From contig CALVVS010000002.1 in assembly GCA_944363925.1 (NCBI GenBank), positions 1 through 60,190 of the forward strand: DNA of 60,190 nt. Reading direction: 5' to 3'. The position numbers and the translations under genes are program-made. The stretch comes from an uncultured Bacilli bacterium. Lineage in GTDB: Bacteria > Bacillota_I > Bacilli_A > RF39 > UBA660. This document shows positions 22,616 through 33,569 of this stretch, piece after piece. Position 1 is the stretch's first letter. Each line of letters begins with the position of its first letter. The notes under the pieces are model-generated. The model saw nothing but the letters and a program-made list of their open reading frames with translations. It did no database searches and was not told where the DNA came from.

Positions 22616-23572
22616 TTAACTTTCTTCAGATTTTATTTTCTCAATTTCAGTTTCAGATAAACCTGTAAGTTTTGCAATTTCTGATACATCCATTTTAGAT
22701 TTAAGCATATTTTTAGCTATTTGCTTAATTCCTTGACTAATTCCTTGTTCAAGACCTTTTTCAATTCCTTGATTAAATCCTTGTTCAAGACCTTGTTCGA
22801 GACCTTCTTTAATAGCTTCATCTCGATCAGTATTCCTCATAAGTTCGTCCATCTCTTCCTTGTCATATAACCCAATAATTCTAGGGTTTTGATTTAAATC
22901 GTCAATTATTTTAACCATATTTTCTAAATCTTCATCTCCTTTAGCTAACTTCTTAATTTCCTTCTTATCAAGAAGTTGAAATATTACTAAAGCCTTTTCA
23001 ACCTTTGAAAGAGACTCCTTACCTAAATTATAATACTTTTTTAAAGGATTGGCCATATTTATATGAATTCTTCTAAAATTTTCTTCATCTATATATAAAC
23101 CATCGTCACTTTTCATAGAAAAATTTGTAAATAATTGATTACCAAATCTTTTAACAGTATTAAAATTAATCTGTAATACTTCACAGTCTTCTAACTTTCC
23201 TCCAGAATTATATTGCTCAGTAGCTATTTTATGGTGATATAGATTATTTTTTATTCTTTGACTCTTGTTTAAAGACCTATTAGCTTCAATATTTAAAGTT
23301 GTCCCACTTATTTCAGCTAAAATATCCGTAATCTTTTTTCTTTCATAGACATTGCTGACAGGAAGTTCCGTATTAATAAACTTCAAATTATCATAGACAA
23401 ACTTAGGAGAATAATTAGTAACTTCTCCAATAATTAAAGAAAGTAATCTTCGAAATCTTAAATCTTGAATAATTGCTTTAAAAACACAGTCAGCCATAGA
23501 AATCATATATTCTTCATCATTTGGCCTTTTAACAGGTTTATCAGTCTTTTCTAAAAGTGCATTCATTGCCAC
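22616..23572 (-). CDS. Rpn/YhgA-like PD-(D/E)XK recombination-promoting nuclease/putative transposase
   Basis: N-terminal DCVFKAI..., D-x-E core (TDILAEISGTTLNIEANRS). C-terminal GLEQGxxQG repeats followed by an HTH-like tail (IAKLTGLSETEIEKI), as is typical of this family. Confidence 0.65.
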   Translation of the reverse strand: MAMNALLEKTDKPVKRPNDEEYMISMADCVFKAIIQDLRFRRLLSLIIGEVTNYSPKFVYDNLKFINTELPVSNVYERKKITDILAEISGTTLNIEANRSLNKSQRIKNNLYHHKIATEQYNSGGKLEDCEVLQINFNTVKRFGNQLFTNFSMKSDDGLYIDEENFRRIHINMANPLKKYYNLGKESLSKVEKALVIFQLLDKKEIKKLAKGDEDLENMVKIIDDLNQNPRIIGLYDKEEMDELMRNTDRDEAIKEGLEQGLEQGFNQGIEKGLEQGISQGIKQIAKNMLKSKMDVSEIAKLTGLSETEIEKIKSEES

Positions 23573-24812: not shown

Positions 24813-26084
24813 TCAATTCTTCAAACATCCAATAGGAACAACATAAACCCCATCTTTACGTTTATAAGCATAATTACCTACACCTATTACTACCATCAAA
24901 AAAGAAGGCTTTTTCATTTTACTAGTATCCAATTTATTATTTAATTTTATCAAATTATTAACACCTTCTTCTATAAGTTTATCGCCACCAAGCTTAATTT
25001 CAATAAGCCCGTAAGAACCATTTCTTAAATGAATAACAGCATCACACTCAAGCGCAGAAGCATCCCTATAATGATATAAAGTACCATTAAGACTTTCAGC
25101 ATACACTCGCAAATCTCTAATACAAAGATTTTCAAATATAAAACCAAATGTATTTAAATCATTAATCAAATCAAGTGGACCTAACCCCAAAGCCGCAACT
25201 GCTATCGAAGGATCAACAAAATATCTAGTATCCGCAGTTCTTATAGCTGTTTTACTTCTTAAATTAGGATTCCAAGCTAACACCTCATCTATAACAAATA
25301 TCTTCTTTAAAGCATTAATATATGATAAAACCGTATCGGTATCTAAAGAAAATGAATCATTATTAACAATATCGTTTCTTAAAGTTAAAATAGAAGCTTG
25401 ACTTCCAATATTTCTAGCATAACTTCTCATCAAATGCTTAACTCTGTTAGCCTCTCTATTTACTCCATCAACTCTTGAAATATCAGAGTTAACCACCGCA
25501 TCATAATAATCAAATGCTTGTTCCAAAGCAATATCTTTTTCCAGCGAAATACTTCTAGGCCAACCACCTCTACAACACAAATAAGCAATATCCTCAAGCG
25601 ATAACTTATTAACTCCATTAATATCTTTACCTTCAAACAAATCTTGCAAACTCACTACTCCAGATGATTCTAATGACTCAAACAAAGTCATTGGACGCAT
25701 AAGCAAAAAAGAAAACCTACCAGTCCCAGTATGCGTTATCAAACTCTTATCAGTAGGTACTGATGAACCAGTCAAAATAAATTGTCCTTCTTCCTTTCTG
25801 TGGTCAACTTCAAATCTAACAGCATCCCAAATTTTAGGCGCAATTTGCCACTCATCTATAAGTCGTGGAACAGCTCCTTCAAGTAATAAACTAGGACTAA
25901 TATCAGCAAGCATCATATTTTGTTCTTTACTATCAGGATTAGCCATATAAAGTATACTCTTAGCTATTTGTTCAGCCGTTGTCGTTTTCCCACACCATTT
26001 AGGGCCCTCAATCAAAACAGCTCCCTTACCTTTTAATTTTCTAATAAGTAAATCATCAACTACCCTTTTTTTATAATTATCCAT
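24813..26084 (-). CDS. AAA ATPase with C-terminal DUF4143/PD-(D/E)XK-like domain (COG1373-type), paralog A
   Basis: Walker A GPKWCGKTTT, Walker B RLIDEW, C-terminal ECDAVIHL...GLIEIKLG (D..ExK-like). About 55% identity by eye to 32304-33569. Confidence 0.75.
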   Translation of the reverse strand: MDNYKKRVVDDLLIRKLKGKGAVLIEGPKWCGKTTTAEQIAKSILYMANPDSKEQNMMLADISPSLLLEGAVPRLIDEWQIAPKIWDAVRFEVDHRKEEGQFILTGSSVPTDKSLITHTGTGRFSFLLMRPMTLFESLESSGVVSLQDLFEGKDINGVNKLSLEDIAYLCCRGGWPRSISLEKDIALEQAFDYYDAVVNSDISRVDGVNREANRVKHLMRSYARNIGSQASILTLRNDIVNNDSFSLDTDTVLSYINALKKIFVIDEVLAWNPNLRSKTAIRTADTRYFVDPSIAVAALGLGPLDLINDLNTFGFIFENLCIRDLRVYAESLNGTLYHYRDASALECDAVIHLRNGSYGLIEIKLGGDKLIEEGVNNLIKLNNKLDTSKMKKPSFLMVVIGVGNYAYKRKDGVYVVPIGCLKN

Positions 26085-26204: not shown

Positions 26205-27338
26205 TTAAAATTGGTTTTTTAAAGTTATTTTCATTAAATTATAGCAGTTGCCCCACTTTAAATGTCCTCTATAACTACTAATTATTCTTAAACCACTCTC
26301 TAAAGGAATTTTCTCTTCACGAATTAACTTCATTTTCCGTTTAAAATTTTTCTTTGTTAATTTTCGAACTTTCAGTATTACTTTATTATCTATAATACAG
26401 TATCTAAACCCTAAAAAATCAAGTCCTTCTTTACTAACATTAATAATCTTCGTTTTCCTATTCAAACAAAGACGATACTTTAATACCATCTTTTCTATTT
26501 CCTTTAGACAATTCTTTAAATATTCCTTGTCATTAGAAAGTATTACCCCATCATCCATATATCTTATATAATACTTAGATCCCAAATCTTCTTTAATAAA
26601 ATGGTCCAGTTCATTTAAGTAAAATACGGCTAATATCTGACTTGTCATATTTCCAATCGGTAAACCTCGACCTTTTTTATATAAAGGAATTTGCTCAATC
26701 TCTCTAATTTTAATATTCTTTTCTTTATCACTTATATTTAACCCTCGAATTCGCTCTATCTCCATATTCTTTAATTTTTCTATCGTCCTATTAACATACT
26801 CCCTATCAGTTGAATAAATAATTTTTTTAAGTATATCTAAAACCTTTTTATCTTTAATTTTTTTATTAAGTAAATCTAACAAAATCTCATGGTCTATATT
26901 ATAAAAATACTTACTAATATCATACTTAAGTGCATAAATCGTCTCACCTTTTAAATTATTCAAATATTTTTTTATAAGTTTAATTCCAAAATGCGTACCT
27001 TTATTTAACCTTGTCGCAATATTTGTCTCAATCAAACATCTATCCAATACCAGTAATAAAAACTTAGATGCCACCACATGATTAATTAACTTATCATAAA
27101 TATTTTGACTCATAATAATTCTATACTTGGGCTCTTGAATTAAAAATATATTGTACATCCCACCCGCATAATTCTCATTTTCAAAAGTCTTTTTAACCCG
27201 GCTAATATTTATAGAATAAAAATCTTCAAATCTTTTAATCTTATATTTATTTTTAGTATTAACTCTAATTTGTCTCCTATAAACCTTTATAATATCTTCC
27301 ATACTAACACTATCATATAGATTCCGTCTTCTTTTCAT
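26205..27338 (-). CDS. DGR-type reverse transcriptase
   Basis: RT motifs YDISKYFYNIDH, GLPIGNMTSQ (DGR hallmark I/LGxxxSQ), YIRYMDDGVIL (YxDD), LDFLGFRY. Adjacent to avd and the TR. Confidence 0.93.
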   Translation of the reverse strand: MKRRRNLYDSVSMEDIIKVYRRQIRVNTKNKYKIKRFEDFYSINISRVKKTFENENYAGGMYNIFLIQEPKYRIIMSQNIYDKLINHVVASKFLLLVLDRCLIETNIATRLNKGTHFGIKLIKKYLNNLKGETIYALKYDISKYFYNIDHEILLDLLNKKIKDKKVLDILKKIIYSTDREYVNRTIEKLKNMEIERIRGLNISDKEKNIKIREIEQIPLYKKGRGLPIGNMTSQILAVFYLNELDHFIKEDLGSKYYIRYMDDGVILSNDKEYLKNCLKEIEKMVLKYRLCLNRKTKIINVSKEGLDFLGFRYCIIDNKVILKVRKLTKKNFKRKMKLIREEKIPLESGLRIISSYRGHLKWGNCYNLMKITLKNQF

Positions 27339-27663
27339 TTCTCATCCATCCATAAATCTGTTTTAAAATATCTAGTAAATGTAAAGAGACCTTTTGATAT
27401 TTTTTATAAGAAATATACTTTTTATCAACTGCCGTCTTCAAATAAAAATCAATCATCCTAATATTAACAACTATTCTCGTCTGATAATATGCCCGCTTAT
27501 CCTTAAACTCACTAGCCATATATGTAAACTCTAAAATATCATACATCGTTTGACTAATTTTGTCCCTAAGAACTTTTTCTTTAGCCGGAAAATTAGTAAT
27601 AATCTTATCTAAATATAAAATTGTTTTTTTTATATTAATCACTACCCTAAAATTATCTACCAT
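27313..27663 (-). CDS. avd: Avd-like accessory variability determinant (four-helix-bundle protein)
   Basis: 116 aa, basic, helical. Its position directly upstream of the RT, overlapping it, is typical of DGR Avd. Confidence 0.75.
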   Translation of the reverse strand: MVDNFRVVINIKKTILYLDKIITNFPAKEKVLRDKISQTMYDILEFTYMASEFKDKRAYYQTRIVVNIRMIDFYLKTAVDKKYISYKKYQKVSLHLLDILKQIYGWMRNEKKTESI

Positions 27664-28067
27664 AAAATTTCCTCAACTTTATCCAATACATCCATAATTT
27701 TTGAATTATTTTTTAAAACTCTAAGCCTGTCATACACTTTATTAATTCTATCTTCCAAATTCAAATCATCTGGGACAAACTTATCATAATTGTTAAAATT
27801 AAACTTCTTACGTGTTATATCATCATCTTCAATAATTACATAATTTATTTTAAAACTCTTAAACTTTGAAATCACCTTATCATAACTGTTAATAGGAAAA
27901 CCAACTCTTTTTATACCATTAATATCTTTAATCTTATAACTAAATAAGTTATTTAAAACATATACATCCTCGCCATAACACTCATAGAAAATACCCACCT
28001 TTATTAAAACTACATATTTTGGATATTTATTTTTATATAAATTATATTTATCAATTATTTTTACCAT
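27657..28067 (-). CDS. Stand-alone MutS domain I (mismatch-binding domain)-like protein, DGR accessory ORF
   Basis: KYPKYVVLIKVGIFYECYGEDVYVLNNLF...IKRVGFPINSYDKVISKF..FKINYVIIE aligns by eye to E. coli MutS [22 protein letters not shown]...IPMAGIPYHAVENYLAKL...VAICEQ. The Phe-x-Glu mismatch-contact motif is included. 7-nt overlap with avd. Confidence 0.7.
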   Translation of the reverse strand: MVKIIDKYNLYKNKYPKYVVLIKVGIFYECYGEDVYVLNNLFSYKIKDINGIKRVGFPINSYDKVISKFKSFKINYVIIEDDDITRKKFNFNNYDKFVPDDLNLEDRINKVYDRLRVLKNNSKIMDVLDKVEEILW

Positions 28068-28084
28068 ACAACCTCCAACAAAAA

Positions 28085-28125
28085 AGCAGTATCAAACAAA
28101 GGGATAATCCCTAATTGGTACTGCT
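28085..28125 (-). terminator. Terminator-like hairpin between the TR region and the MutS-I-like ORF
   Basis: Minus strand reads AGCAGTA...TACTGCT followed by TTTTTT, immediately before the GGAGG RBS of 28067. Confidence 0.5.
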
Positions 28126-28244
28126 AAAAATATAGTTTTTCTCATATCATATCTCTTTCAAATATTATAGACCATTAACTAATCACTAGGACATATTTAA
28201 TAATCAATTTTACTAAAAATATCTCTGACTATATTTAATATTTA

Positions 28245-28279: not shown

Positions 28280-28361
28280 CTGGGACAATACTTATTCTCT
28301 AATCTTTTCATTATGACCATATTAGTTCATAACCCATAGTGTTCTAGAGAGTTCCAGACAG

Positions 28362-28465
28362 CCGGACGGACCGCATTGGTATTGTTCGCATTGTTGTTGT
28401 TGAAGTTGCCGTTGTTGTTGTTGACATTGAACACGTTGTTAGAGTTGCCGGAATTAGGCGACAAC
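28362..28465 (-). repeat. DGR template repeat (TR)
   Basis: 104-nt gapless match to 28677-28780. All 17 mismatches are at TR adenines (coding strand). The N-rich (AAC/AAT) reading frame means the tracked ORF 28327-28521 is the TR, not a gene. Confidence 0.93.
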
Positions 28466-28602: not shown

Positions 28603-29505
28603 TTATCCCAAAGTATATGGGTTATTTTGGGAACCATTTCCACCAGTTATTTTGACCTCAGAGCTTAGATAGACGACCGGACGGACCGCAAAGGTAAAGT
28701 ACGCATCGTTGTAGCTGAAGCTGCCGTTGTAGTCGCTGACATCGAACACGTAGCTAGAGGTGCCGGAATAAGGCGACAACGTCCACCACCAGTTACTCGA
28801 ATAAAACATCCATGTGGTTCCTTTACATTGTGCAGAATTCCATATTTGCTGCACTGTACCACAGCTACTTTTATTACTATTACTTCTTACATATTCACTT
28901 GCCGTAACCAATGCTACTTTTCCGTTCCATTTGCTTGCTTTTTCATTTTTTATGGTATTTGCCATATTATTATCATTAGATGCTACTGCACCAATACTCC
29001 AATCTTTAGCTACTATTTGACTTTGAGCTGTACTATTTAATCTATTATAATATGTGCTATTCAAATATGTATTCAAACTTGCTGGTCTGGCCCAATTATT
29101 ACTATTAGAACTATCCCACACTCGATTTCCTATACTATTTATTCTCATTATCTTTATTGTTCCATCACACTCTATTGATACTATGCGCCAACCGGCTTTT
29201 TCATTATTGAAAGTTATATAGTTATTTGGATTTTTTCCTGTAAAGAAATACCTGCACTCATATGGGTCTTTTTCTAACCCCGCATCTTCGATTATTTGCT
29301 CACCTGCTGGTGGTTCTTTTGTACACTCAGTATAAAGTTCGTCTATAGCTCCTTTAACTGTCGTACTCGAAAGACCGCTTTCTGTATTATCATAACTTAC
29401 CTCATTTGAAGGAAATGTAACTGCCGCATATACTAATGTACCCATACATAAAATTACACCTACTATAAAACCAATTATATTTTTCTTTATATAATCTTTT
29501 TTCAT
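28603..29505 (-). CDS. DGR target (variable) protein; membrane-anchored/secreted, C-terminal VR-bearing ligand-binding domain (C-type-lectin-like fold inferred)
   Basis: N-terminal TM/signal segment. VR encodes LSPYSGTSSYVFDVSDYNGSFSYNDAYFTFAVRP near the C-terminus. The WWWTLSP...FAVRPV pattern is as in CLec/DUF1566-type DGR targets. Confidence 0.88.
   Translation of the reverse strand: MKKDYIKKNIIGFIVGVILCMGTLVYAAVTFPSNEVSYDNTESGLSSTTVKGAIDELYTECTKEPPAGEQIIEDAGLEKDPYECRYFFTGKNPNNYITFNNEKAGWRIVSIECDGTIKIMRINSIGNRVWDSSNSNNWARPASLNTYLNSTYYNRLNSTAQSQIVAKDWSIGAVASNDNNMANTIKNEKASKWNGKVALVTASEYVRSNSNKSSCGTVQQIWNSAQCKGTTWMFYSSNWWWTLSPYSGTSSYVFDVSDYNGSFSYNDAYFTFAVRPVVYLSSEVKITGGNGSQNNPYTLG
28677..28780 (-). 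repeat. DGR variable repeat (VR) with GC-rich IMH-like 3' end
   Basis: See the TR. The shared 3' GC-rich element (coding strand GCGGTCCGTCCGG) is followed by flanks that diverge between VR and TR. Confidence 0.93.
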
Positions 29506-29937: not shown

Positions 29938-31888
29938 GTGAAATTAATATAGATAGTTTGCCTTTATAGAATAAGGGTTTTATTTTGTCAAGTTTTTGGC
30001 ATTTTATGGTTGTATAATTTTGTATAATATGATAAAAGGTTATTAAGGTAGTGATGTTATGTTTATTAAAAAATGTAAATATTCAAATGGAAAAACTTTT
30101 TTATCAATTGTTCATGGTTATAAACAAGATGGTAAAGTTAAACATTTAACTATTAAAAAATTGGGCTACTTGGAAGATATTTTATTAGAACATGATGATA
30201 TAGATGCTTTTTTAAAAGAACAATTATTAAATTGTCAAAATGAATTTGATGTTGACAAAGGTATTTTTATTAAAAATGAAAAAATGGACTTTTCTAAACG
30301 ATATATATTTAATCTAGGTTACTCTATTTTAAAACAAATATACAATGAACTTGGTTTGAAAGAATTCTTTAAAGATAAACAGAAGAAACTAAAAATGAAT
30401 TATAATCTAAACTCTATTTTTGAACTCCTAATTTATTCTAGAATTTTATTTCCAGCTAGTAAAAATGAAACTTATAATAACAAAGATATATTTTTTGATA
30501 ATTTTGATTTTTCTTTAAAAGACTTATATCGTTCACTAGATTATTTTAATGGTTTCAAAGATGAACTTCAAACTCTACTTTGGAATAATACTAAAGATAA
30601 ATATAAAAGAGATGCTTCTACTTCTTACTATGACTGTACCAATTATTATTTTGAAATTTCATATAATGATGAAGATTTAATTGATGAAAATGGTAACATT
30701 TTAGAAAAAGGTTACAGAAAAAAAGGACCTTCTAAAGAACACAGACCTGAACCTATAATCGGTCTTGGCTTATTAATGGATAAAACTGGTATTCCACTTT
30801 CTTATAATTTGTTCCCGGGCAATCAAAGTGAAAAAATCACTTTAAGACCCACTTTAAAAAATACTAAGTCTAACTTTGGTATTGATAAAACTATTGTTGT
30901 GGCTGATAGAGGCCTAAATACTTCTGATAATATATTTTTCTTAGCTGGTAAAAATAATGACACATCAAACAAAGATGGTTATGTATATGGTCAAAATGTC
31001 CTTTCTTCTGACAAAGAATTTAAAGATTGGGTTTTAAATCAAGATGGATATATTACTGATATATTTACTGAAGATAATGAAGAAATACATTTTAAACATA
31101 AATCTAGAATTTATGCGAAAACTATTCAAATTGAAAGAAATGGTAAAAGGACAAATAAATATACTGTTTACCAAAAGCAAATGGTTTATTTTTCACAAAA
31201 ATATGCGGATAAACAAAAACGTGAACGTGATTTAGCTATAGCTAAAGCCAAAGATTTAATTAATAACCCAGGCAAATATACTAGAGCCACTTCTGTTGGA
31301 GCTGCCGGTTTTATAAACAATCTTTCCTTTGATAAAAATACTGGTGAGGTTATAGATAAAAATTTATCTTTAAACATCGATAAAATTAAAGATTTAGAAA
31401 GATTTGATGGTTATTATTCTATTGTTACTAGTGAAAAAGAACTATCAGACAAAGAAATAAGGGATATTTATAGTGGTTTATGGAAGATTGAAGAAACTTT
31501 TAAAATTACTAAAAGCGAACTTAAAACTAGACCTATTTATGTTTGGACTAAAGAACATATTGAAGCTCACTTTTTAACCTGTTTTATTTCTTTAGTTATA
31601 CTTAGATTACTTCAACAAAGAACAAATTACAAATATTCTACTAAAGAGCTTATCAAATCATTAAAAACTTTAAATGTTAGATATCAAAACGCAAACTATT
31701 ATCAACTATTAAACTATTCAAAACAAATTGATGATATTTCTCGTTGTTTTAATATTGATTTTTCAAATTCATTAATATCTAAGAAAAAAATTTCAAATTT
31801 ATTAAAATAATTTATATTATACAACCTATTCAAAATGAGTTAAGCCTTGTTTTTATTAGCTTAACTCTTTTTTACTGTCAAACTCAGG
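29920..31888 (+). mobile_element. IS1634-family (IS4-related) insertion sequence, about 1.97 kb
   Basis: Terminal inverted repeats CCGGAGTTTGACAGT (29920-29934) and ACTGTCAAACTCAGG (31874-31888), 14/15 complementary. Single DDE transposase ORF and long flanking direct repeats. Confidence 0.8.
30059..31810 (+). CDS. IS1634-family DDE transposase
   Basis: N-terminus MFIKKCKYSNGKTFLSIVHGYKQDGKVKH.TIKKLGYL is typical of IS1634 transposases. 583 aa; C-terminal Y..LW.IEE.F...K motif (YSGLWKIEETFKITKSEL). Confidence 0.8.
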   Translation: MFIKKCKYSNGKTFLSIVHGYKQDGKVKHLTIKKLGYLEDILLEHDDIDAFLKEQLLNCQNEFDVDKGIFIKNEKMDFSKRYIFNLGYSILKQIYNELGLKEFFKDKQKKLKMNYNLNSIFELLIYSRILFPASKNETYNNKDIFFDNFDFSLKDLYRSLDYFNGFKDELQTLLWNNTKDKYKRDASTSYYDCTNYYFEISYNDEDLIDENGNILEKGYRKKGPSKEHRPEPIIGLGLLMDKTGIPLSYNLFPGNQSEKITLRPTLKNTKSNFGIDKTIVVADRGLNTSDNIFFLAGKNNDTSNKDGYVYGQNVLSSDKEFKDWVLNQDGYITDIFTEDNEEIHFKHKSRIYAKTIQIERNGKRTNKYTVYQKQMVYFSQKYADKQKRERDLAIAKAKDLINNPGKYTRATSVGAAGFINNLSFDKNTGEVIDKNLSLNIDKIKDLERFDGYYSIVTSEKELSDKEIRDIYSGLWKIEETFKITKSELKTRPIYVWTKEHIEAHFLTCFISLVILRLLQQRTNYKYSTKELIKSLKTLNVRYQNANYYQLLNYSKQIDDISRCFNIDFSNSLISKKKISNLLK

Positions 31889-32036
31889 ATATAATCTTGC
31901 AGTAAATAGTTCGTGTGATTATTTTGCAGTAAATAGTATCATACTTGACGAAGGGGGATAGTTAAATATGATATTAAAATTTGATAATCTCAAAGATTTA
32001 CTGATATTTAATATTAAATATTATCGGTATCAAAAT
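31889..32036. repeat. 148-bp direct repeat, right copy
   Basis: See 29772-29919. Confidence 0.92.
31898..31937 (+). promoter_or_regulatory. Two direct 13-bp repeats TGCAGTAAATAGT (candidate operator) upstream of the XRE gene
   Basis: 31898-31910 and 31925-31937. The same pair occurs in the left copy at 29781-29793 and 29808-29820. Confidence 0.5.
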
Positions 32037-32261
32037 AACCTATCACAAGAAAAACTAGCTGAACTATGTTCACTATCATCTAGATATATAACAGATATAG
32101 AAAGAGGTTTGCACTGTCCGACAATTCCAAAATTAGAAATAATAGCTAAAGCTTTAAATATAAAGCCATATATCTTATTTCAAAATCCCCCAAGAAGCCA
32201 AGAAATAATTAACAAAATGCAAAGTACTAGACAATATAATCAAAGAAGAAAAAAACGTTAA
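31968..32261 (+). CDS. XRE-family helix-turn-helix transcriptional regulator
   Basis: HTH_3 pattern LSQEKLAELCSLSSRYITDIERG...P....L..IAKAL. Confidence 0.8.
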   Translation: MILKFDNLKDLLIFNIKYYRYQNNLSQEKLAELCSLSSRYITDIERGLHCPTIPKLEIIAKALNIKPYILFQNPPRSQEIINKMQSTRQYNQRRKKR

Positions 32262-32303: not shown

Positions 32304-33569
32304 CTAATTTTTTAAACAAGTTATGGGCACAACATATACCCCATCTTCTCTTCTATATGCGTATTTAGTAGCCGTAAGTATCATCAAAAATGATGGTTTA
32401 TTCATTTCACTAGTATCTACAACATTAGAAAACTTTATCAAATTTTTAGCAGCCAATTCAATAGAATCATTGTTTCCTAACTTAATCTCGGCAGCACCCC
32501 ATCTGCCATCTTTTAGATGTACAATAGCATCACATTCTAACCCACTCTTATCGCGATAAAAAAACACATCACCATCTAAACTTTGAGCATAAACTTTTAA
32601 ATCTCTTAAACACAAAGCTTCAAAAATAAAGCCAAATGTTTTAAAATCTTTAAGTAAATCTTTATCAGTTGCCCTAAGTGCAGCTACTGCTATTGAAGGG
32701 TCAATAAAACATCTTTTTGCACTAGTTCTTATATCCGTTTTACTCCTAAGTTTAGGACACCACGCTTCCACATCATCAATTACATATAATTTAGATAAAG
32801 CATTTAAATAATCGACAATAGTCTTTTCAGAAATGGTAGAATCATTATAAAATGTATCATCTTTAATAGTAGCTAAACTCGCCGTTGTGCATATATTTCT
32901 AGATAAACTTCTAATAACCGTGCGAAGTCTATTAGGATTTCTCACAGTCCCATCAACAGTCTTAATATCATTTATAATTAAAGAATCTAAATAATCTCGT
33001 GGCACAATTAAAGCATCTCCCTTATTCAAATCGAGAGAACTTGGCCAGCCACCACGCGCACATAAATAAGCAATATCCTCAAGTTCTTTATTAGACACAC
33101 CTTTAATATCAATAACACTATCAAAAAGTTCACTTAAAGAAACACTGCCAGTAGAATCATTAGATTCATATAAACTCATAGGCCTCATAAGCAATCTGAT
33201 AATTCTACCAGTTCCACTGTGCATAGGTTCATCGTCTCTCGGAGTAATAGAACCAGTTAAAATATATTGATTTTTCAAACCAGTATTATCAACATCATAC
33301 CTAATTGCATCCCAAAGCATTGGAGCATCCTGCCACTCATCTATAAGTCTTGGCTTTTCACCTTCCAAAAGTAAATCAGGTCTCATATTTGCAATTTCTA
33401 AATTATTTTCTCTAGTTCTTGGATTTTGAAGTTCTAATACACTTTTAGCATATTGTTTAGCCGTTGTTGATTTACCACACCACTTAGGTCCAATAATTAA
33501 AACTGCACCATATATTTTCATCCTTTTTTCTAAAATATCATCAAGTAATCTAGGCATATATTTTTTCAT
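32304..33569 (-). CDS. AAA ATPase with DUF4143/PD-(D/E)XK-like C-terminal domain, paralog B
   Basis: GPKWCGKSTT, RLIDEW, ECDAIVHL...AAEIKLG. Confidence 0.75.
   Translation of the reverse strand: MKKYMPRLLDDILEKRMKIYGAVLIIGPKWCGKSTTAKQYAKSVLELQNPRTRENNLEIANMRPDLLLEGEKPRLIDEWQDAPMLWDAIRYDVDNTGLKNQYILTGSITPRDDEPMHSGTGRIIRLLMRPMSLYESNDSTGSVSLSELFDSVIDIKGVSNKELEDIAYLCARGGWPSSLDLNKGDALIVPRDYLDSLIINDIKTVDGTVRNPNRLRTVIRSLSRNICTTASLATIKDDTFYNDSTISEKTIVDYLNALSKLYVIDDVEAWCPKLRSKTDIRTSAKRCFIDPSIAVAALRATDKDLLKDFKTFGFIFEALCLRDLKVYAQSLDGDVFFYRDKSGLECDAIVHLKDGRWGAAEIKLGNNDSIELAAKNLIKFSNVVDTSEMNKPSFLMILTATKYAYRREDGVYVVPITCLKN

Follow-up and report, generated by a model that had tools for sequence, protein, structure and literature searches.

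Genes encoding MutS-like proteins (MSL) are one of the four classes of DGR accessory genes described by Wu et al. (Nucleic Acids Res 2018; PMC5758913), and the description of the class is repeated in a 2021 review. MSL genes were found in 16 of 372 DGRs, one of these in Legionella, and encode proteins of 112-283 aa. They always occur together with avd and never with HRDC (the 'Architecture D' of the authors), and three DGR reverse transcriptases (RTs) carry a MutS_I domain as a C-terminal extension (PMC5758913). Msl genes have also been reported in three Bacteroides DGRs, Bfr, Bth and Bun (Macadangdang et al., bioRxiv 10.1101/2024.11.15.621889). No functional test of any MSL was found in the literature searched (open-access papers and bioRxiv).

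Data on host mismatch repair come from several DGR systems. In a Bacteroides DGR lacking Msl, deletion of the host mutS gene raised retrohoming 5-10 fold and left the mutation pattern unchanged; the authors conclude that the repair of heteroduplexes by host MutS is all-or-nothing; Msl is absent from both Bov and Bfi, which are active Bacteroides elements (10.1101/2024.11.15.621889). MutS is reportedly unnecessary for the retrohoming of the Bordetella phage (cited in PMC5758913). In one reconstitution in E. coli, mutS was deleted to help keep DGR substitutions, and the loss of mutS had no effect in the 18-nt insertion repair assay of that study. Another E. coli reconstitution relied on a dominant-negative MutL, the rationale given by the authors being the MutS-like homologs. 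The entry of mutagenized cDNA into the variable repeat (VR) is the least understood step of the DGR cycle, and among the proteins encoded by DGRs only MSL is obviously connected to mismatches.

The window analyzed here, a stretch of 60,190 nt from an uncultured Bacilli bacterium (contig CALVVS010000002.1), contains a DGR in which a 136-aa ORF precedes avd. The ORF is a further member of the already named MSL class, and the gene class itself is not new. The original prediction mentioned a survey of DGR cassettes listing a MutS-like accessory ORF, and the survey is that of Wu et al. 2018 (PMC5758913); MSL had also been presented as a mechanistically undescribed part of the system, which overstated its novelty, the class having been both named and reviewed. 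The window thus contributes a member of the class and not its discovery. What is newly added is the large size of the family, an invariant Phe, a dispensable Glu, an acidic C-terminal hairpin, a conserved overlap with avd, and the occurrence of intact MSL in cassettes lacking RT and avd.

The gene of the window resembles published MSL genes (PMC5758913) in its small size, homology to MutS and location inside a DGR cassette, as in the presence of avd and the absence of HRDC. The published proteins, a set of 16 genes compared by description, have a near-neutral pI of 7.2 +/- 1.7, vs. 9.1 for the window protein and a mean of 8.4 +/- 1.2 for its family. In the RT-MutS_I fusions (PMC5758913) the same module is tied to the DGR RT machinery, being fused to RT there and encoded by a separate, avd-overlapping gene here. 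The Bacteroides Msl genes, also compared by description, similarly reside in chromosomal DGRs of gut bacteria. They differ in host and target, being found in Bacteroidota, in DGRs with Type V pilus tip proteins as targets, whereas the DGR of the window belongs to an uncultured Bacilli bacterium and has a DUF6273 target.

The DGR cassette of the window

All the components of the cassette are on the minus strand, in the order target gene with VR, template repeat (TR), MSL, avd, RT. The target gene (28603-29505) encodes a 300-aa protein featuring an N-terminal hydrophobic segment and a C-terminal DUF6273 domain (Pfam, E 1.2e-10), the latter bearing VR, which lies at the 3' end of the gene (28671-28780). 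TR is an AAC-rich segment of 110 nt (28356-28465) located between the target gene and the MSL ORF. TR and VR, identified as direct repeats of each other, are 83% identical over 110 nt, and 17 of their 19 differences correspond to A residues in TR. The avd gene (27313-27663, 116 aa) was identified by Pfam bAvd (E 3.9e-12), NCBIfam DivGenRetAVD and PHROG 3206 ('Avd protein of DGR'), and the RT gene (26205-27338, 377 aa) by Pfam RVT_1 (E 2.6e-18) and a group II RT-like match. No HRDC match was found by Pfam at E <= 10 among the four cassette proteins. The cassette is a complete, genuine DGR.

The MSL gene (27657-28067) was assigned by Pfam MutS_I, AlphaFold and Foldseek. It starts with ATG, has a GGAGG sequence just 5' to it, and is the sole ORF between TR and avd; its placement in the DGR operon and its 7-nt overlap with avd are as originally described. 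The MSL stop and the avd start share the 7 nt ATGGTAG, and the avd and RT genes overlap by 26 nt. The MSL-avd overlap, along with the orientation shared with avd and RT, suggests translational coupling.

The DGR is chromosomal, its neighbors including priA, fmt, tig, infB, nusA, ffh and spore-germination genes. Neither mutS nor mutL was found among the window ORFs scanned. An identical protein, within an identical gene order, is encoded by one ENA metagenome scaffold.

A lone MutS domain I and its relatives

The 136-aa protein matches the Pfam MutS_I profile (PF01624) with 32.5 bits (E 1.1e-7), the curated cut-off being 20.6; the match spans residues 6-69 of the protein and positions 5-73 of the 113 of the profile. 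No other Pfam family matched the protein at E <= 10, and within this search none of the connector (II), core/lever (III), clamp (IV) and ABC ATPase (V) domains was found. NCBIfam MutS equivalogs match over their first ~70 positions only, scoring 15-18 bits against cut-offs of 480-642. Scores this far under the cut-offs and the absence of domains II-V indicate that the protein is a homolog of MutS domain I, not a MutS.

A profile built from 20 close homologs retrieved Thermus aquaticus MutS (1ewq) from PDB with E 0.0012. In the alignment, GiFYEtyGED falls on GDFYECFGED, and vGFP on aGIP, so that F27 of the window protein takes the position of the Phe that stacks on mismatches (MutS Phe36), and E29 that of Glu in the Phe-x-Glu pair (MutS Glu38). 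The two motifs read G25-x-F27-Y28-E29 and G56-F57-P58. The structure predicted by AlphaFold2 has a pLDDT of 85.4 with 20 sequences, which rises to 93.7 with 72 sequences, the latter model being confident over all the 136 residues. When models were compared to PDB by Foldseek, the top 47-48 matches were all domain I of MutS, MSH3 or MSH6 (best E 3.6e-6; rmsd 1.2-2.4 A over 72-92 columns). The MutS domain I fold is formed by residues 1 to ~90. Residues ~100-136 form a two-helix hairpin (helices 100-120 and 124-135 in the model from the deeper alignment) which has no counterpart in the Foldseek matches. The protein is basic overall (pI 9.1), as is its domain I part (pI 9.4), and the C-terminal hairpin is acidic (pI 4.8).

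On these grounds, the 136-aa product is almost certainly an MSL-class MutS domain I protein. The alignment to MutS domain I originally made by eye was right, Pfam and the profile alignment to T. aquaticus MutS being in agreement with it. The view of the protein as a stand-alone domain I carrying the Phe-x-Glu pair (G25-I-F27-Y28-E29, aligned to GDFYE of the T. aquaticus protein) and devoid of connector, clamp and ATPase domains was equally borne out, by a MutS_I score above the curated cut-off, by a Pfam search in which MutS_I is the only family at E <= 10, and by a predicted structure which superposes on MutS/MSH domain I and on nothing else among the Foldseek matches.

Compared to MutS domain I of E. 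coli (1e3m) and T. aquaticus (1ewq), the window protein has the same fold, the GxFYE segment with Phe-x-Glu, and GxP. It differs in having ~18-22% identity only, in lacking domains II-V, and with them the ATPase, the clamp, the dimer interface and the route to MutL, and in featuring the acidic C-terminal helical hairpin as an extra part. Small proteins similarly made by the MutS domain I fold alone are found in BFVD in Siphoviridae sp. ctZro7 (153 aa) and in the giant virus Klosneuvirus KNV1 (135 aa); a link to DGRs is unlikely for the Klosneuvirus protein.

The 27 close relatives found by a word-indexed search are all small. When 1.84 billion cluster representatives (50% identity) were searched exhaustively with a profile, 1269 clusters were retrieved at E <= 1e-3, of which 361 had E <= 1e-10. 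Proteins in the best 150 clusters range in size from 58 to 299 aa, but are mostly 130-145 aa long, and most cover almost the whole profile, C-terminal helices included. The acidic C-terminal hairpin is a conserved addition to domain I.

Residues invariant among the 20 close homologs include G25, F27, Y28, E29, G56, F57, P58 and the K73-I-N-Y76 stretch. When 72 diverse members, with identities to the window protein of 28-85%, were aligned, F27 and F57 proved invariant, and G25, D34, Y44, G56, P58, Y76, N92, Y94, I108 and L115 almost invariant; E29 is kept in 24 members out of 72. The motif G-x-F-[YFIV]-x was recognized in 263 of the 273 proteins retrieved. The last position of the motif is E in 102 of these (39%), H in 32, I in 30, N in 19 and K in 19; the motif reads GxFYH in a group of distant relatives (P0200/P0247). 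The Phe-x-Glu pair thus holds for the window protein, as predicted, and for its close homologs, but not family-wide, Glu being found in only 102 of 263 proteins. Judged from these alignments, Phe is a family-wide constraint, the Phe-x-Glu pair a feature of a sub-family.

No close relatives were found in IMG/VR (scan) or in INPHARED phages (tblastn), and no PHROGs family corresponds to the protein, so that the sub-family seems to belong to chromosomes and not to phages, although BFVD includes a few small MutS_I proteins from phages.

Genomic context of the family

The 20-sequence alignment was used to search a collection of species-representative genomes, and 28 loci were identified. Most are found in MAGs of uncultured gut Bacilli, the remaining ones in Erysipelotrichaceae, Firmicutes bacterium CAG:822, a 'Tenericutes' MAG, a few Clostridia, and two contigs binned as Muribaculaceae. 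MSL, avd and RT are found in a row at 22 of the 28 loci, RT only at one, a target gene only at two, and none of these at three. The link to DGRs thus held in the adjacency survey, homologs not being found mostly away from these elements. Homologues of the target gene are found upstream of MSL in related loci.

The same arrangement was observed in metagenome contigs. A bAvd gene directly follows MSL both in close relatives (P0019, P0022, P0014) and in distant ones, 28-45% identical to the window protein (P0042, P0178, P0200, P0247), and RT is found downstream of bAvd wherever the contig reaches that far. In the P0200/P0247 group the target gene is directly upstream of MSL, and a gap of ~480 nt, which probably houses TR, separates avd from RT. 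The place of MSL relative to TR hence varies, its place before avd being constant. The MSL stop and the avd start overlap by 4-11 nt in 30 of the 36 loci in which both genes could be placed, though these loci are not all independent.

Some copies depart from this scheme. Three are truncated or frameshifted (L024, L030, L031), and three are orphans found without a DGR (L023, L026, L032). In MAG BRZ_CL__bin38 the cassette is split in two. One half (L009:4676-6414) includes the target gene and a genuine VR/TR pair in which TR adenines account for 20 of the 21 differences; its MSL is intact and is succeeded by rpsF and ssb, avd and RT both being missing. The other (L006:5582-7890), syntenic with the window, combines a TR-like segment with MSL, avd and RT, and has a TnpB-like fragment in place of the target gene, which is missing; the TR-like segment is 99% identical to TR of the first half over 129 nt. 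The occurrence of both halves in one genome implies that RT and Avd act in trans, and each half has its own copy of MSL.

A different layout is found in two other loci (L008:67-1633 and L046:3-1449), in which an intact MSL lies ~230 nt past the target gene and precedes genes for a response regulator and a histidine kinase. TR, avd and RT were not found within 6 kb at either locus. This layout is not an assembly artefact, as it recurs in two independent samples; it could denote either an orphan MSL which is maintained or a recent deletion.

Possible roles of MSL and features near the cassettes

Shielding of heteroduplexes from host MutS/MutL, their recruitment and a bias in strand choice, the roles originally put forward for MSL, are hypotheses. 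DNA binding by full-length MutS requires also the clamp domain and dimer formation, and a lone domain I may bind DNA weakly. MutS engages MutL through its connector and ATPase regions. Against this background, the reading we prefer, tentatively and at somewhat less than even chances, is that MSL rides with Avd-RT, binds the heteroduplex formed by cDNA and VR, and holds or masks it, keeping host MutS from starting repair. MSL would travel with the Avd-RT complex to the cDNA, and its invariant Phe would serve as a wedge to bind the irregular, mismatch-dense duplex which adenine-mutagenized cDNA forms with VR. Having no connector, clamp or ATPase, MSL would neither form a sliding clamp nor license MutL; as ATP hydrolysis, clamping and contacts with MutL would all be missing, binding would mask or stabilize the intermediate, and no repair would be triggered. 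Host MutS would be kept from reverting the heteroduplex until replication fixes the new VR.

Masking fits the known antagonism between host MutS and DGR output. The RT-MutS_I fusions, and the finding that MSL never occurs without avd (PMC5758913), point to a physical coupling to the RT machinery, and favor the mechanism. The role of Phe as wedge residue is supported by its conservation in 72 of 72 diverse members, and by the presence of G-x-F-[YFIV] in 263 of 273 proteins. Masking is weakened by the loss of Glu in most members, which implies that the family as a whole does not depend on canonical mismatch chemistry, and by the probably low affinity of a lone domain I for DNA. It is weakened also by the existence of highly active DGRs lacking MSL, which is thus not essential to DGR function in general, and by the report that Bordetella phage retrohoming does without MutS (cited in PMC5758913). 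If MSL masks or manages the heteroduplex, it would become clear how some natural DGRs get along with hosts proficient in repair, and MSL might substitute for mutS deletion or dominant-negative MutL in tools for directed evolution based on DGRs.

A broader version of masking, more doubtful than masking itself, sees MSL as a counter-measure of the retroelement to host mismatch repair. MSL would mimic the MutS mismatch sensor in minimal form, as a decoy delivered by Avd-RT, and would block all-or-nothing reversion by host MutS, so setting the diversity output of the DGR. In a variant, the target/TR side would be where MSL acts, which would account for the intact MSL of target-TR-MSL cassettes that lack RT and avd and must be served in trans.

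The main rival, nearly as well supported as masking although likewise less likely than not, is that MSL works independently of host mismatch repair, as a core homing cofactor in the Avd-RT-RNA particle. It would stabilize mispaired primer-template or cDNA:target junctions, and promote cDNA annealing or integration at VR. The tight coupling of MSL to avd and the RT-MutS_I fusions (PMC5758913) speak for such a cofactor too, as does the loss of Glu in most members, which suggests a generic binding to irregular duplexes and not a MutS-type verification of mismatches. The intact MSL found beside target and TR in the half cassette lacking avd and RT (L009) is also in line with it. Against a core function stands the fact that most DGRs, including the one of Bordetella phage BPP-1 and the highly active Bov and Bfi, lack MSL and home without it.

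Alternatively, and improbably, MSL could be an adaptor which brings in or redirects host repair factors (MutL, beta-clamp, a nuclease), biasing repair to the cDNA strand and turning mismatches into VR changes. The conserved C-terminal hairpin, absent from MutS, could serve as an interface between proteins, and the all-or-nothing action of host MutS on VR heteroduplexes (10.1101/2024.11.15.621889) is compatible with a redirected repair. Yet MSL lacks the very regions, connector and ATPase, by which MutS engages MutL, and the loss of mismatch repair raises DGR output instead of lowering it. That the ORF has no function, being either the remnant of a captured mutS gene in decay or a product of chance in AT-rich DNA, is extremely improbable: the ORF is short, and truncated, frameshifted and orphan copies do exist, but 361 clusters are found at E <= 1e-10, the top 150 all made up of small proteins, most near the full length of the profile, the motifs are invariant across members 28-96% identical, the model is confident from end to end, and the overlap with avd is conserved. 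Both the pseudogene and the chance-ORF readings are ruled out by the conservation of the family.

A long hairpin (28080-28126, minus strand; single-sequence folding) is located between TR and MSL, directly before the ribosome-binding site of the latter; it reads AGCAGTACC..GGGATTATCCC..GATACTGCT, has GGGAT/ATCCC as inner stem and is followed by T6. When sequences were folded singly, the hairpin was found in 8 of 11 related loci, the outer stem being kept and the inner stem altered yet still pairing. The motif GAAAGAGATATGATATGAGAAAAACTATATT is conserved just upstream of the hairpin, in the region up to ~28160. RNAalifold detected no structure upstream of MSL when run on a MAFFT alignment, the alignment being of poor quality in this region. 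The hairpin could be a terminator or attenuator parting the TR RNA from MSL-avd-RT, or a structural element at the 3' end of the DGR RNA.

The DGR of the window is flanked by paralogous genes for AAA_14/DUF4143 ATPases (24813-26084 and 32304-33569, both on the minus strand). The target gene is separated from the second ATPase gene by a DDE_Tnp_1 transposase gene and an HTH_3 gene (30059-31810 and 31968-32261, both on the plus strand). All these genes are missing from the syntenic locus of MAG BRZ_CL__bin38 (L006), which indicates that the DGR neighborhood is a site of insertions and rearrangement. At a further locus (L039:4175-6261), an IS21-like element, made up by a Mu-transposase-like gene and IstB, sits exactly between MSL and avd in an otherwise conserved cassette. 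In a Clostridium MAG (L029:47-2309), RT is flanked by two MSL-like ORFs in opposite orientation, one of which shows a weak Avd match.

Genes of the PDDEXK_2/Rpn-like type (recombination-promoting nuclease family) reside within a few kb of MSL-type DGRs in at least six distinct contexts. One is found in the window (22616-23572, minus strand), others at L001:958-1827, L006:3-593, L037:8110-8952, L038:7440-8072 and L043:764-1678. Genes of this type are often multi-copy, and their proximity to the cassettes may be a coincidence.
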